64,000 nt of DNA. It comes from a virus. This document shows, piece by piece, positions 458 to 57,064 of this stretch. Below the pieces are notes generated by a model. That model ran no database searches and was not told the DNA's origin. It saw only the letters and a list, made by a program, of their open reading frames with translations. Where the stretch lies: the IMG/VR virus record IMGVR_UViG_3300042894_005670; one strand, written 5' to 3'. The position numbers and the translations under genes are program-made. Position 1 is the stretch's first letter, and each line of letters starts with the position of its first letter.

Positions 458-711
458 CATATGATCTTGTGATCAGTCAAGAAGGGCCAGACGCTCATCC
501 TTTATACAGTGCCGTTAAGCACAGCATTGAATGGATAGGAAAAAAGCATCAAGTCAATAGTCCTATGGATTTGAAATATTTGACTGAAGAAGAATTTGAT
601 ATTAGAATTGAAGCAGTGGGATATCTAACTAATACATCAGGTAATTATAGATATAGGGTAAGTTTCCGTGATGAACGACATTATACTTGGTTTATATTGA
701 GGTGGTCATGA
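454..711 (+). CDS. LRW-array protein
   Basis: ATGA-coupled start; ends FRDERHYTWFILRWS. Confidence 0.85.
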   Translation: MTYDLVISQEGPDAHPLYSAVKHSIEWIGKKHQVNSPMDLKYLTEEEFDIRIEAVGYLTNTSGNYRYRVSFRDERHYTWFILRWS

Positions 712-43008: not shown

Positions 43009-44391
43009 TTACAATATGTTGTATCGCTCAACGTTCACAGTGTCAAGCATAATACTTAACGGTGTGAAATCTCTTGCTCCTAAGATAGACTTCATGATAG
43101 ATGGTGAAAAACCACTTACCAATGCTGTACCTTGTGTATTAAACTTTACAGGAACATTGTCATGTGAGTTTAAATTCCAAAATACAATCTTAGGCACATC
43201 ATAACCTGCATCAGCATACTTCTTACCAATTGCTTTATATGCGGTATCATCAGCACGTACTGCTTGATTAAACTGCATATCAGAAAGAATCAATAAAAAC
43301 TTAGGCATATCTGCTTCAGGTACTTTATTGATAAGTGCTACAATTAGAATAGCATCAAATGCTGCCATGAGATTAGTTGACATTGACCAATCAGCACGAT
43401 TCATTTGATTCATTTTATCAACAATATTACCTTTTAATATTTCAATCTTGGTGTTTGTAGAAAATGTTAAAAACATATCCTTAAACGCACCACGATTTTT
43501 GTCAGCACAATATAATCCTAAAGCCACTGCAACATTTAAGCAAGTTAAGTTTTTAGCTCCACCTACAGAGCAACCCATTGACCCACTTACATCAACCATA
43601 GGCAACACATTAGCATCACTCATATAGTTAGGTAGTGCATCCCACTGTGCAATGCTCACATCAATAATACCACTTGATAAAGACTTAATTATGTCATGTG
43701 GGTATATGGCTGAAGCATTAATTTTAGTGGTTCCGCTAACTAACCCATCACGATACTCTTTGTAGCGATCATGGTCATTACGATCAAATGCTTTTTTGTA
43801 AATAGATGCAGCAATTGATGGTACATGTGAGTAATTTATTTTATCCCATTCTTTAGCGCACATATTAGTTTCAACAACTTTAGTTGCATTAACTAATAGC
43901 TTACGATATGTTTTAGGTGACAACCCCATAAAATTACGCAACTCTGCGGCAATTTGCCCTTTACGTGGCATCCACTTTGCACATAGTCCATCATTGTTTA
44001 ATAACGCTTCACGAATTGATGTATAAGCAAAGTTTCTCATGGTGCGTGTTGAAAAAATTAACATATCGTCCCAACGCCCAAAAGTAGGGATATGTGGGAT
44101 TACACGTACTAACATACTAGGATGGTTTATTTCCATGTATAAAAGTAAGTCACGTACTAATTGACGTTCACCTGCTCCACCACGCACATCACGTGCCCAT
44201 AGCAAAATTTTTGTAGCAATTTCAGGAGATTCTTGAAACGCTTTTTCAAATAGTGCGCTTATATCTTTACCACGTGATGCTCCAATTTTAAAGAATAAGT
44301 CTACAAGAGCATCACCTGTTCCATTAAACGCAGCCATACCATTTGTCGTAGTAGTATCAACTTCAGTTTCTACTGCTGTTTTAAATTCCAT
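43009..44391 (-). CDS. DUF2828 family protein (TROVE/Ro60-like helical domain plus vWA)
   Basis: T.NG, RDVRGGAGER, GRWDD, AKWMPR, INYSHVPS, DVSGSM (MIDAS), LSDMQF, VFWNL, SGFSP. Confidence 0.88.
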   Translation of the reverse strand: MEFKTAVETEVDTTTTNGMAAFNGTGDALVDLFFKIGASRGKDISALFEKAFQESPEIATKILLWARDVRGGAGERQLVRDLLLYMEINHPSMLVRVIPHIPTFGRWDDMLIFSTRTMRNFAYTSIREALLNNDGLCAKWMPRKGQIAAELRNFMGLSPKTYRKLLVNATKVVETNMCAKEWDKINYSHVPSIAASIYKKAFDRNDHDRYKEYRDGLVSGTTKINASAIYPHDIIKSLSSGIIDVSIAQWDALPNYMSDANVLPMVDVSGSMGCSVGGAKNLTCLNVAVALGLYCADKNRGAFKDMFLTFSTNTKIEILKGNIVDKMNQMNRADWSMSTNLMAAFDAILIVALINKVPEADMPKFLLILSDMQFNQAVRADDTAYKAIGKKYADAGYDVPKIVFWNLNSHDNVPVKFNTQGTALVSGFSPSIMKSILGARDFTPLSIMLDTVNVERYNIL

Positions 44392-49094: not shown

Positions 49095-49123
49095 ATTGTA
49101 TATTAATTAGGATATGTTGTCAA
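49095..49123 (-). promoter_or_regulatory. sigma70 early promoter
   Basis: TTGACA-17-TACAAT. Confidence 0.85.
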
Positions 49124-50991: not shown

Positions 50992-51414
50992 TCACTGTCC
51001 ATGAGGACTCTCCTTTAAAAAACTTGTGTCAAATGTATCAGGGTCATCAACAAGTTGATTAGCATCAACTTCAACCCACTTACCATCAATTTTTACTTCT
51101 ATCTTTACTTTCTTTAACTCACGCTCTAAAGCACGTTCAGCTTCAATATATTCACCTGTACGTTTCATATACTCTAAATGAACCCACTTTTTAAACTTAT
51201 CAGTATTTGCCATTTTTTCAAAAGCAGTTTTACGATTATCTAACTGACTGCGACTTGACTCACTATAACCATGTGCACCACTTGGTCGATGAGTACAATG
51301 TACTGCTGAACTAGTTTTATTACGTTTTTGTCCACCTGCTCCTGTACCTTTGGTATACGACCAATCACAATCTTTGGCGGTAATACTAAAAAACGGATCT
51401 TTTGTTTGTTTCAT
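50992..51414 (-). CDS. Peptide chain release factor-like protein (GGQ domain only; ArfB/PrfH-like)
   Basis: GTGAGGQKRNKTSSAV...H.PSG...SRSQLDNR; true start MKQTK (the upstream extension is tRNA sequence). Confidence 0.88.
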   Translation of the reverse strand: MKQTKDPFFSITAKDCDWSYTKGTGAGGQKRNKTSSAVHCTHRPSGAHGYSESSRSQLDNRKTAFEKMANTDKFKKWVHLEYMKRTGEYIEAERALERELKKVKIEVKIDGKWVEVDANQLVDDPDTFDTSFLKESPHGQ

Positions 51415-51431
51415 ACTTTGTCCTATATTGT

Positions 51432-51506
51432 TGGCGGTCCCAATGGGAATTGAACCCATCTCTGAGCAGTGACAGTGCTCTATCCTAACCAATAGACGAT
51501 GGAACC
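51432..51506 (-). tRNA. tRNA-Asp(GTC)
   Basis: loop CTGTCAC; GCCA end. Confidence 0.9.
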
Positions 51507-51512
51507 AAAATT

Positions 51513-51588
51513 TGGGGTGACTGATGAGAGTCGAACTCACACTGTACAGAATCACAATCTGCGGCACTACCATTATGCTACAGTCACC
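51513..51588 (-). tRNA. tRNA-His(GTG)
   Basis: loop TTGTGAT; G-1:C73. Confidence 0.9.
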
Positions 51589-51590
51589 AT

Positions 51591-51665
51591 TGGTGGTAAT
51601 GATAGGAGTCGAACCTATACAACGCAGCGTATGAAGCTGTTGCACTACCATTATGCTACATTACC
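51591..51665 (-). tRNA. tRNA-Met(CAT), elongator-like
   Basis: loop TTCATAC; CCA. Confidence 0.82.
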
Positions 51666-51692: not shown

Positions 51693-52157
51693 ATGCAATT
51701 ATCTAAAAACTTTTCCTTGACTGAATTATACAAAAGTACAACTGCTATTAGAAATAATATCAATAATGAACCTACATCTGACATTATAGCAAATCTTGAG
51801 CTATTATGTGTCAACGTTTTACAACCAATTAGAGATTTTTTTAAATATCCTGTAAAAATCAACAGCGGATATCGCTGCGTAAAATTAAATCAACTAGTTG
51901 GTGGTAAGCCTAATAGTGAACATAGTTTAGGAATGGCAGCAGATATTGAGATTAACGGTGTATCAAATTATGATTTAGCATTGTATATTAAAGATAACTT
52001 ACAATATACACAGTTAATACTAGAATTTTATACAATGGGCGATCCAAATAGTGGATGGGTTCATGTAAGTTATAATGTAAATGATTTAAAAAAAGAAAAT
52101 TATACTGCAGTAAACTCAAGTGGTAAGGTTTATTACTTACGTGGCTTAAACCCTTAG
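51693..52157 (+). CDS. Peptidase M15A family (endolysin-type)
   Basis: INSGYRC..LN..VGG...SEH..G.AADI, WVHVS. Confidence 0.9.
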   Translation: MQLSKNFSLTELYKSTTAIRNNINNEPTSDIIANLELLCVNVLQPIRDFFKYPVKINSGYRCVKLNQLVGGKPNSEHSLGMAADIEINGVSNYDLALYIKDNLQYTQLILEFYTMGDPNSGWVHVSYNVNDLKKENYTAVNSSGKVYYLRGLNP

Positions 52158-54170: not shown

Positions 54171-54818
54171 TTAAATTTTCCTACCTCTGTTCCAACCTTT
54201 AGGAATAGATTCATTTTTACATATCTTTTTGTTAACTTCGCCATTTGTAATCCACATTGTATTGTACTGAGAATTTTTTTCTCCTATCTGATTAATTGAA
54301 TTTTTTTCACCGATTATTTTTTTAGTTTGTTCAGAATGTTTTTTACCATAAAATGTACCTAGAGGATTTTTTTCATGCGATATTTTACTAGCATTTAGTG
54401 CATTATTTTTTATTTTCTGAGCAAAATTACTATCAGTATGTAATTTTTCAATATATCTTTTTAAAGTTGTTTCTATTGGCATCAATGAATTTAATCGTTT
54501 TTCTGTAAGAAAGATATTAGGATTTTCATTAATATAATCAAAACCACCATAACCACCTTTTCTTAAATTATAGGTATTTTCATTAATTAAAAAATCTTCA
54601 TTTACAATTTCTGATTCTTTTTTATACATAAGTTCAGGTGTATCAAAAATATGCAAAATTTCTTTTTCAAAATTTTCTAAGCCATACTTTACAATAGCAT
54701 ATTTTAGATACTTACCTGATCCCATATAACCGTCATTAAGATTTTTGGTTTTATGTGAACCAATATAAATTTTACCATTCATCTTATTTGTTATCTTGTA
54801 TATAATATAATAAGTCAT
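54171..54818 (-). CDS. Seg-like GIY-YIG homing endonuclease
   Basis: IYKITNKMNGKIYIGSH....DGYMGSG; YNL..GG.GG; GKKHSEQTK; WITNG. Confidence 0.9.
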   Translation of the reverse strand: MTYYIIYKITNKMNGKIYIGSHKTKNLNDGYMGSGKYLKYAIVKYGLENFEKEILHIFDTPELMYKKESEIVNEDFLINENTYNLRKGGYGGFDYINENPNIFLTEKRLNSLMPIETTLKRYIEKLHTDSNFAQKIKNNALNASKISHEKNPLGTFYGKKHSEQTKKIIGEKNSINQIGEKNSQYNTMWITNGEVNKKICKNESIPKGWNRGRKI

Positions 54819-54860
54819 ACATATATTTATACAAGTTCAAGCCCTGACACTGCTTTTGTG

Positions 54861-55132
54861 CTCCAATGCGTGGGATCGAACCACGGACCAATTGATTACA
54901 AGTTTGTGTAACTTTCGTTACTCCTTGGACTATACCATAACCTTAGTATTACAACGTTAGGTTCTCACCGTCTAGTCTCTACACCTTCAAGAATATCTCT
55001 ATTCAAGCTTGGCTCGGTATTGCCTTATGCAATGCACTTAGGTTTCACCGAATTTGATGAGTTTTTCAATTAATGTTTCCACTAAAAGCTGCCTTTTGAC
55101 AGTCAACTGCTCTACCTCTGAGCTACATTGGA
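54861..55132 (-). tRNA. tRNA-Asn(GTT) interrupted by a group I intron
   Basis: exons 55132-55099 and 54898-54861 rejoin to GTTGA-CTGTTAA-TCAAT; acceptor TCCAATG/CATTGGA, G73. Confidence 0.9.
54899..55098 (-). mobile_element. Group I self-splicing intron (200 nt, no ORF)
   Basis: P1 CTGT|C pairs GGCAG with a U.G wobble; P AAATTCGGTGAAA, Q AATACCGAGCC, R GTAGAGACTAGA, S GGTATAGTCC; terminal G. Confidence 0.9.
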
Positions 55133-56118: not shown

Positions 56119-56192
56119 TGGCACCGACAGAGGGATTCGAACCCCCACAAACAGTTTTGGAGACTGCTATGCTGCCATTACACCATGTCGGC
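56119..56192 (-). tRNA. tRNA-Trp(CCA)
   Basis: loop CTCCAAA; GCCA. Confidence 0.9.
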
Positions 56193-56199
56193 ATATATT

Positions 56200-56275
56200 T
56201 GGAGTAAGCGACAGGAGTTGAACCTGCATAAAACGGGGTTGCAATCCGTTCCCTAGCCATTCGGGTCACGCTTAC
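56200..56275 (-). tRNA. tRNA-Cys(GCA)
   Basis: loop TTGCAAC; U73. Confidence 0.88.
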
Positions 56276-56282
56276 ATATAAA

Positions 56283-56396
56283 ACAGGATGCATTATCGTT
56301 GCTCTACCATTAAGCTACATATCTTTTACAAGACATGGTAGGATTCGAACCTACAACAGACGGCTCCCGAAGCATCATAACTTGCTGTTAGCATCC
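56283..56396 (-). ncRNA. Permuted tRNA-mimic RNA (YrlA-like architecture), ACAGCAA family copy 3
   Basis: GGATGC-TAACAGCAA...T-arm GTAGG-TTCGAAT-CCTAC, closed acceptor CATGTC/GATATG, D-arm TAGCTTAATGGTAGAGC...GCATCC-TGT. Confidence 0.8.
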
Positions 56397-56402
56397 TAAA
56401 CT

Positions 56403-56480
56403 TGGCACCCCCTGTAGGATTCAAACCCACGACCTTACCGTTCGTAGCGGTACGCTCTAAGTTCACTGAGCTAAGGGGAT
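56403..56480 (-). tRNA. tRNA-Arg(ACG)
   Basis: loop CTACGAA; GCCA. Confidence 0.88.
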
Positions 56481-56650
56481 ATATTTTTACATTCTTAAAA
56501 CAACTGTATCCAATTATCTTAAGAATGTAGTGGGGCCATCCCCCACTTGCTCATCTTACTCCTGTGTTATCGCCACAGTTTCATACCGAGACTCCGACCG
56601 TTCGTGGCATGTTTATCGTGCACCACTGAGACCTCGTTTCTCACACACGT

Positions 56651-56685
56651 AAAACAAAAAACCCTAGGGGTTTATTCCTAGGGTT
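56651..56685 (-). terminator. Intrinsic terminator (attenuator) upstream of the tRNA cluster
   Basis: AACCCTAGG-8nt-CCTAGGGTT-TTTTGTTTT. Confidence 0.8.
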
Positions 56686-56712
56686 CAGTGTAATCTTATG
56701 TACTATCTATGA

Positions 56713-56829
56713 TTAGCCTGAACCCCTGCCCCCAATATCCTCAAAATTATATGAGCGAGCATGGGGGATTGCACACCAACTTGGTTGTGTACCCTTTGCT
56801 AAACTCATCGTGTTTCTGAGACTTTTCAT
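56713..56829 (-). CDS. Putative attenuator leader peptide (38 aa)
   Basis: MKSLRNTMSLAKGTQPSWCAIPHARSYNFEDIGGRGSG*; last codons overlap the antiterminator arm. Confidence 0.65.
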   Translation of the reverse strand: MKSLRNTMSLAKGTQPSWCAIPHARSYNFEDIGGRGSG

Positions 56830-56944
56830 GTTTGTAACTTTACCTTATAAAATTTACTTTGTCAACTACTTTTGTATCTTAATGTAAGGTTATTTATACA
56901 TTGTTGTAAAAACCATACAAAAAAGCCATATTTTTTGCATATTT

Positions 56945-57023
<79 letters not shown>

Positions 57024-57064
57024 ATCATGTTTCGTACGATAGCAGACAATTATTTAGCTGTCAA

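Follow-up and report, generated by a model that had tools for sequence, protein, structure and literature searches.

A candidate ribosome-mediated attenuator with a leader peptide of near-complete amino-acid content upstream of jumbo phage tRNA arrays

The role of the large tRNA arrays of phages has long been debated: it has been proposed that they provide codon supplementation, that they replace host tRNA as it decays, or that they allow the phage to escape anticodon nucleases (such as PrrC, PARIS and Schlafen-type enzymes). A 64,000-nt stretch of the IMG/VR virus record IMGVR_UViG_3300042894_005670 (that whole stretch is hereafter the window) raises the question of what decides whether such an array is transcribed. 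On its minus strand, at 56865–56651, a sigma-70-type promoter is followed by a 38-codon open reading frame (ORF), a 14-bp hairpin and an intrinsic terminator, and tRNA genes follow the terminator (Table 1). We consider it quite likely, from the comparison of sequences described here, that this unit is a ribosome-mediated transcription attenuator heading the phage tRNA array, and that the peptide encoded by its leader ORF would serve as an amino-acid checklist. A first-pass annotation of the window had proposed attenuation by a general sensor of the tRNA pool, and the open frames, amino-acid completeness, pairing and tRNA arrays found at related loci support that proposal.

Analyses of the window indicated that the leader would be transcribed from a promoter (P2) that was kept in five close relatives and whose TAAAGT box is separated from the leader ATG by 7 nt. 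The transcript start predicted from P2 is 56831–56829, i.e., the AUG itself or a position 1–2 nt upstream, and the leader mRNA would therefore be leaderless and without a Shine-Dalgarno (SD) sequence. Other promoters of the same type in the window (e.g., those at 49123, 48681, 48400 and 47736) precede genes that have 20–30 nt leaders and AAGGAG-like sites.

A recount of the leader peptide agreed with the first-pass annotation: the ORF (56829–56713) has 38 codons and the 24 residues from Met8 include 19 different amino acids, Val being the only one absent from the whole 38-residue peptide. Among the 289 window ORFs of 30–60 amino acids (aa), the leader was the single one to reach 19 kinds in a 24-mer (the runner-up had 17), and none of the 43 large window ORFs did so. 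Composition-matched shuffles that were kept open gave P = 0.0017 for at least 19 kinds in a 24-mer and only P = 0.07 for at least 19 in all 38 residues. Because the 24-residue stretch had been picked post hoc, we take its diversity in the window to be suggestive and not decisive. The G/C-ending codons that had been described as uncommon were confirmed to be so by their relative synonymous codon usage in the window (CTC 0.09, CCC 0.22, CGC 0.26, GGG 0.29 and GAG 0.33), and the majority of these rare codons lie within G+C-rich stems.

The RNA between 56832 and 56645 was predicted to fold much better than shuffled sequences (z = −3.5). The first-pass annotation had noted complementary arms, one in the last codons of the leader and one overlapping the 5' arm of the terminator, and these proved to belong to a longer pairing than had been claimed. 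In this candidate antiterminator (hairpin 3), an outer helix of 9 bp pairs a 5' arm in the last four sense codons (56726–56718) with 56688–56680, and an inner helix of 5 bp pairs 56715–56711 with 56695–56691. The stop codon is inside hairpin 3, where it forms the first three bases of the 5' strand of the inner stem. The antiterminator arm is 3–11 nt ahead of the stop, and all 19 amino-acid kinds of the leader sit at least 13 nt upstream of the arm. Seven nucleotides (56686–56680) are shared by the antiterminator and the terminator, whose helices are mutually exclusive. Folding of the naked RNA favored hairpin 3 (−24.9 kcal/mol, vs −20.2 kcal/mol with the terminator forced), and when pairing was forbidden in a ribosome-sized footprint at the stop codon the predicted fold was the full terminator, in agreement with the exclusive hairpins that the earlier reader had expected of this region. 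The trp/his-type geometry that had also been asserted was upheld in part: there is an antiterminator arm that a ribosome could mask, but the arrangement has three elements and is not the four-segment trp type.

Copies recognizably similar to that of the window were found in five other contigs only, just one of which had diverged (L003/L088). Its ORF differed from the window leader at 25 of 117 positions (8, 10 and 7 at the three codon positions), and its amino-acid identity to the window peptide was that expected of random substitution. The frame was intact in this copy (P = 0.12) and, with the frame taken as intact, the presence of all 20 amino acids had P = 0.014. The stems were kept: within hairpin 2, which is possibly a pause hairpin for RNA polymerase, one C-G pair had become U-A and two pairs had become G-U, as read by eye. 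In the main family described below, the corresponding position is occupied by another conserved hairpin.

A more distant homologue was present in G002, a related complete phage contig of 383 kb, in which a near-identical terminator stands upstream of a tRNA array, with a 48-codon ORF ahead of it that contains all 20 amino acids. A search pattern built from the terminators of the window and G002 matched at least 119 viral contigs, from jumbo phages, and all family counts given here are among the matches listed (106 distinct variants). Six of these variants were excluded, three of them as chance matches of unrelated sequence and three as truncated, which left 100 members with 96 distinct leader peptides. 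As the terminator motif was the sole search key, the observations made on the leader, the pairing and the tRNAs are independent of the search; the chance matches had none of the other features of the family. The family consensus comprises TTGACA-17-TATAAT (~99% conserved), a near-invariant ATG, an ORF mostly of 42–50 codons, a TAA in the inner stem of hairpin 3, and the terminator. The window matches the terminator pattern of the family, and its clade is an outlier with a short, 38-codon leader and internal hairpins unlike those of the main family. The window leader has 19 kinds of amino acid (no Val) and that of its diverged sister (L088/L082) all 20.

The leader frame was open, with a length of 38–67 codons, in all 96 of the distinct leaders, while the alternative frames contained 267 and 441 stops and were open in ten and none of them, respectively. 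All 20 amino acids were present in 77 leaders, 19 in 17 leaders and 18 in the remaining two, i.e., 80% of the leaders were complete, compared to 17.5% after column shuffling. A null of independent, identically distributed residues with the composition of the family itself, which is already flattened, produced 4.4% complete peptides (maximum 11.5% in 500 simulations). Completeness was also seen in 32 representatives with less than 55% identity to one another, 66% of which had the full set vs 14% when column-shuffled (maximum 34% in 2000 shuffles), and the leaders of related phages are therefore variable in sequence yet diverse in content, as had been anticipated. Individual amino acids were retained at shifting positions: Cys occurred in 28 of the 32 representatives in 20 different alignment columns, at a mean of 1.0 copy, His in 31 of 32 (22 columns) and Tyr in 32 of 32 (23 columns). 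As a control we used a small gene located after the terminator at 65 of these loci, whose product of 45–58 aa is longer than most leaders. It was complete in 0 of 58 cases and had a median of 17 kinds (range 13–19). In 72 of the 96 leaders the full set of 20 was upstream of the antiterminator arm, and for each of Ser, Arg and Leu both codon boxes were present in 83–100% of leaders. Together, these data point to what appears to be selection for a complete amino-acid set and not for a particular peptide sequence.

The alternative pairing was conserved in the same leaders. When each transcript was folded without the 3' arm of the terminator, the ACCCU of the terminator 5' arm paired upstream in 96 of 96. 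The pairing partner, the antiterminator 5' arm, which was absent from the search pattern, was located 10–33 nt ahead of the stop codon (most commonly 21 nt), and the stop codon was itself 23–36 nt ahead of the terminator arm. When the leaders were aligned with MAFFT, 90.8% of cells in the outer and middle helices were paired, vs at most 61.6% when the partner was slid. Five antiterminator pairs had changes on both sides, and the covariation score was reached by none of 500 shuffles. The retention of stem pairing through compensatory changes, for which the first-pass annotation had suggested searching related phages, was accordingly found throughout these leaders. Median predicted energies were −23.4 kcal/mol for the antiterminator vs −14.7 kcal/mol for the terminator, and the antiterminator prevailed in the full-length naked fold of 81 of the 96.

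The start region was of two types. A promoter was recognizable in 84 leaders, and in 22 of them, that of the window (7 nt) included, the −10 box was 6–10 nt before the ATG, which was often a tandem ATGATG; the remaining leaders had an A-rich leader of ~45–60 nt. A leaderless 5'-AUG is thus a recurrent design in the family, and the missing SD sequence is no argument against translation.

The genes that follow the terminator were those of tRNAs. A tRNA gene on the same strand was found within 0.2–1.2 kb in all 58 listed loci having at least 2.5 kb of downstream DNA, and none had an opposite-strand tRNA there. Up to 35 tRNAs were present in the next 8 kb, and the arrays outside the window clade covered 14–20 amino acids over that distance, whereas that of the close relative L082 covered 8. 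In the window, ARAGORN identified 18 tRNAs in addition to a 19th with a group I intron; 17 of these and the intron-bearing one are downstream of the element, in keeping with the 18 of 19 counted earlier. The first is at +205, and no promoter was detected between the terminator and the genes of the first block (tRNA-Arg, a Y-RNA-like RNA, tRNA-Cys and tRNA-Trp). Control by the element of this first block only, together with the conserved RNA that precedes it, is credible for the window. The first-pass annotation had extended control to all 18 tRNAs and possibly to a gene with an RF-1 (GGQ) domain 5 kb away, an extension we did not retain since these lie beyond opposite-strand genes and other promoters.

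The first product past the terminator would be a conserved structured RNA (56650–56487), which in the window carries the motif GAAACGAGGTC at 56640–56630. In six close relatives it differed at only 1–2 positions (5 in L088), and it was near-identical even where the neighboring tRNA-Met had diverged (L112). About half of the listed family members had this RNA by the exact GAAACGAGGTC-type motif, and it was present with covarying stems in 43 distinct members. In this RNA the loop AAACGAGGU is closed by a stem and the conserved loop GCACUnnAAACAU belongs to a hairpin whose stem covaries; the motif AAACGGGCGG and other covarying stems are also present. The distance from the start of the terminator motif to the RNA motif was 44 nt in the window, L226, L196 and L241, and 45 nt in L168. 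In many listed members a small gene lies between the terminator and the first tRNA.

From the anatomy, the exclusive helices, their conservation and covariation, the apparent selection for a complete set and the invariant linkage to tRNA arrays found here in sequence comparisons, we propose the following mechanism. Transcription would begin at P2 and a ribosome would load on the 5'-terminal AUG. The leaderless start would let it do so once the 5' end emerges, presumably favoring tight coupling to RNA polymerase. A ribosome that reads all 38 codons would cover the 5' arm of hairpin 3 when it reaches the stop codon, the terminator would form and the transcript would end at 56651. Were the ribosome stalled earlier by a shortage of an aminoacyl-tRNA, or were no ribosome present, hairpin 3 would form first and sequester the 5' arm of the terminator, and RNA polymerase would continue, transcribing the conserved RNA and then the tRNA genes. 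Starvation, host tRNA decay in infection and tRNA-cleaving defense nucleases are candidate causes of such a shortage. A complete set of amino acids in the leader is explained only if every kind of codon must be read, which argues for the sensing of a shortage of any aminoacyl-tRNA. On balance we lean towards the more general proposition that jumbo phages test the whole aminoacyl-tRNA pool of the host with a leader kept stocked with every amino acid, whose incomplete translation opens the tRNA array and the conserved RNA.

Several observations weigh against an attenuator of this kind. The codon adaptation index of the window leader was 0.50, which is under that of all 43 large ORFs and like that of non-coding sequence; among spurious small ORFs it ranks at the 60th percentile. 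No SD sequence precedes the leader, its peptide is without Val even though the phage encodes a tRNA-Val, and it is comparison among relatives that suggests it would be translated. The set is usually completed by a Glu codon only ~9 nt before the antiterminator arm, and a ribosome stalled at that codon may itself mask the arm. The covariation evidence covers the antiterminator and not the terminator, whose motif had been the search key, and further downstream opposite-strand genes and additional promoters break up the window array. In addition, no anti-antiterminator was seen and none of the upstream hairpins shares bases with the antiterminator arm, so that RNA without a ribosome is predicted to read through (a default ON state) and termination, as modeled, would need a ribosome on nearly every transcript. 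The predicted read-through also means that some factor must promote termination, and a switch that is real but worked in trans, by a phage or host RNA-binding protein or by a tRNA binding hairpin 2 or 3, could use the conserved hairpins in the ORF as binding sites. The ORF would then be secondary, as its lack of an SD sequence would allow. We think such a factor very unlikely, since it leaves unexplained why the frame is open in all 96 leaders, why the set of 20 is maintained at shifting positions and why the stop codon has a fixed position in hairpin 3, and no match to a T-box or other riboswitch was found.

Less probable again is that the leader encodes a functional small protein, with the hairpin and terminator ending its unit and the tRNAs expressed by leak-through or from other promoters. 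Such a protein would fit the conserved ATG and frame, the synonymous CGC/CGT and CCA/CCG variants and the residues that recur in the leaders (a Trp, Asp-Arg and Thr-Pro-Glu). These residues, however, are encoded where the arms of a conserved RNA hairpin lie, and the even spread over codon positions of the substitutions between the window and L088, with an identity equal to the random expectation, gives no sign of purifying selection. A protein fold provides no reason for having every amino acid once, the real small protein next door has 13–19 kinds, and no homologue of the leader was found in PHROG, Pfam or the phage database. The least probable of the explanations, in our estimation, is a non-coding small RNA (sRNA) or processing leader that has a promoter and a terminator of its own, like the stable RNAs of the T4 tRNA region, in which the ORF is incidental. 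The retained ORF and its amino-acid completeness would have no explanation in that case, and a terminator pre-empted by an upstream hairpin would be a poor design for an sRNA gene, although the strongly structured RNA, the A-rich 5' region without an SD sequence and codon usage like that of spurious ORFs are all compatible with one.

Table 1. Features of the candidate attenuator and of the region immediately downstream of it in the window.
Feature	Coordinates	Strand	Details
Sigma-70-type promoter P2	56837..56865	−	TTGACA 56865–56860, 17-nt spacer, TAAAGT 56842–56837
Leader ORF, 38 codons and TAA stop (56715–56713)	56713..56829	−	19 of 20 amino acids
Hairpin 1, within ORF	56771..56792	−	Minimum free energy (MFE) fold; support from close relatives only
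Hairpin 2, within ORF; CCCCCA/UGGGGG and inner stem	56729..56767	−	MFE fold
Candidate antiterminator, hairpin 3, 14 bp	56680..56726	−	−19.0 kcal/mol
Intrinsic terminator: 10-bp stem 56686–56677/56668–56659, 8-nt loop, U6GU4 to 56651	56651..56686	−	−15.8 kcal/mol
Conserved structured RNA, predicted first product past terminator	56487..56650	−	Near-identical in close relatives
First block, credibly regulated	56119..56480	−	tRNA-Arg(ACG) 56480–56403; Y-RNA-like RNA 56362–56296; tRNA-Cys 56275–56200; tRNA-Trp 56192–56119

The region ahead of the leader contains a tRNA-Met (57023–56945, minus strand) that precedes P2 and has its own promoter at 57064–57036. An inverted repeat, ATGTA-N10-TACAT (56882–56901, minus strand), is situated just upstream of the −35 box and was kept in close relatives; it may be an operator or a hairpin that ends the upstream transcript. 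G002 has a comparable repeat, GTTGTA...TACAAC, ahead of its leader promoter. Of the promoter elements listed by the first-pass annotation, TTGACA (56860–56865) stood, being paired with TAAAGT at 17-nt spacing, whereas TATAAATA at 56898–56891 was rejected as a −10 box; it is inside the conserved inverted repeat (56901–56882) and not credible for the leader unit. The G002 leader is preceded by three tandem near-consensus promoters (L124 1047–1261, minus strand), TTGACA-17-TAcAAT/TATAAT, ~90–100 nt apart. The homologue of the conserved RNA in this contig is at L124 ~480–640 (minus strand). The conserved RNA of the window contains an 11-codon frame preceded by an SD sequence and then an 18-bp hairpin.

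The tRNA region is mosaic. L001/L087 had an insert of ~850 nt between the tRNA-Met and the leader promoter, and neither the tRNA-Arg(ACG) nor the Y-RNA-like RNA was present in L088. Relatives that are otherwise 7–16% diverged were near-identical between the terminator and the first tRNA. Within the window array there is a GIY-YIG homing-endonuclease-like ORF (54171–54818, minus strand). The interrupted tRNA (54860–55132, minus strand), which is the 19th and was called by ARAGORN with introns allowed, contains a group I intron of ~200 nt (Rfam Intron_gpI, 69.4 bits, 55115–54906); L083 is without 54899–55095 and represents an intron-less allele. The Y-RNA-like (YrlA) tRNA-mimic (56296–56362, minus strand) scored 36.5 bits, below the cut-off of 69. 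An ORF at 43009–44391 (minus strand) encodes a 460-aa DUF2828/DUF7788 protein (phrog_850, 'RNA-binding protein'), and the two may constitute a phage pair of the Ro/Y-RNA type within the tRNA region. The RF-1-domain gene (50992–51651, minus strand) is embedded in the tRNA region. As listed, its ORF overlaps tRNA-Asp, tRNA-His and tRNA-Met, and its true start is therefore placed downstream of 51432. No second leader was found in the window. A terminator-like site at 51878–51862 was considered as a second attenuator and rejected, as it is within a 154-aa plus-strand ORF (51693–52157) that was taken as coding.

Other searches for the module returned few members. With a neighboring kinase-like gene as anchor (80 loci), BLAST and nhmmer identified the element in only three, and the rest had no nearby tRNAs; a 182-aa ORF used as anchor gave no further diverged copy. 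Exact patterns from hairpin 1 and from the downstream RNA each recovered the same four viral contigs only, and a single scan of metagenomes contributed one more close relative (L112). When five large related contigs were searched for the module with BLAST there was no match, even though G002, which has a diverged homologue, was among them; since that homologue surfaced only through the terminator scan, negative BLAST results are uninformative at such divergence. No homologue was found in 50,697 GenBank phage records by blastn or tblastn, and Rfam had no family match for the leader or the downstream conserved RNA. RNAalifold yielded no usable consensus from four near-identical sequences or from a gappy 48-sequence alignment. 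A scan of genome contigs with the terminator pattern identified one member and four chance matches. The member, L247 (contig JBBAKF010000113.1, 6.2 kb), is binned with a Polynucleobacter metagenome-assembled genome and has a 48-codon leader with all 20 amino acids. Its binning is a weak hint of a host or a binning error, and is too weak for a host to be named.

If the proposed attenuator is correct, the phage treats its own tRNAs as an inducible response to translational distress, and the tRNA array would be an inducible counter to tRNA-cleaving defenses and host tRNA decay and not a constitutive codon supplement. Leader-peptide attenuation would be extended from biosynthetic operons to viral RNA genes, under the unusual constraint of selection on the completeness of a peptide's amino-acid content instead of its sequence. 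The leader could also serve as a portable reporter for which insults trigger the response. Our literature search found no paper on leader-peptide control of phage tRNA genes.

The classical attenuators with which this module may be compared are the leaders trpL, hisL, leuL and pheL and the multivalent thrL and ilvL, which have a promoter, a short ORF and overlapping helices followed by the regulated genes. The features of the class present in the phage module are an upstream ORF on the same strand, a terminator, an exclusive antiterminator helix and matching codons, the last in the unusual form of all amino acids; a 1:2 anti-antiterminator helix, which defines the trp type and not the whole class, was not seen. 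In the enterobacterial leaders, as is proposed for the phage module, the antiterminator arm is masked by a ribosome that has reached the end of the ORF; in both, ~60 nt separate the stop codon from the terminator end. The enterobacterial leaders differ in having runs of one to three regulatory amino acids, where the phage leader has each about once, and in controlling biosynthetic enzymes instead of tRNAs. They also have the 1:2 anti-antiterminator, so that untranslated RNA terminates, in contrast to the read-through predicted for the phage RNA. The best Rfam leader score was noise (His_leader, RF00514: 16.9 bits vs a cut-off of 49, E = 3.6), and no other leader family was listed. T-box elements likewise sense tRNA charging through a choice between terminator and antiterminator, but they bind one specific uncharged tRNA directly, without translation, and control synthetase or amino-acid genes; no T-box match was obtained at E ≤ 10 on 56280–56950 or on the G002 homologue. 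In mycobacteria, leaderless short poly-Cys ORFs act as Cys-responsive attenuators. These are also leaderless short-ORF sensors, but of a single amino acid, in a cellular operon and with a different read-out.

The closest known system is that of whiB7/wblC in the Actinobacteria, which likewise has an upstream ORF (uORF) of a few dozen codons and broad composition (PMC10274678). There too, efficient translation leads to a rho-independent terminator, stalling leads to an antiterminator and read-through, and general translation stress is sensed (PMC10274678). The amino-acid content of the whiB7 uORF sets which starvations induce read-through; in Mycobacterium smegmatis it contains every amino acid but Cys, and removal of its Trp or His codons abolishes the matching response (PMC10274678). 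A cellular precedent for a sensing uORF of broad composition thus exists, with a likeness to the phage module that is mechanistic and for which no sequence relationship is expected. The whiB7 element is cellular and its target is a transcription factor and not tRNA genes. Its uORF is Ala-enriched and often several amino acids short, whereas 80% of the listed phage leaders are complete and some are of the leaderless variant. What would be new in the phage module, relative to whiB7, is its viral setting, its tRNA-gene target, the selection for completeness and the leaderless variant.

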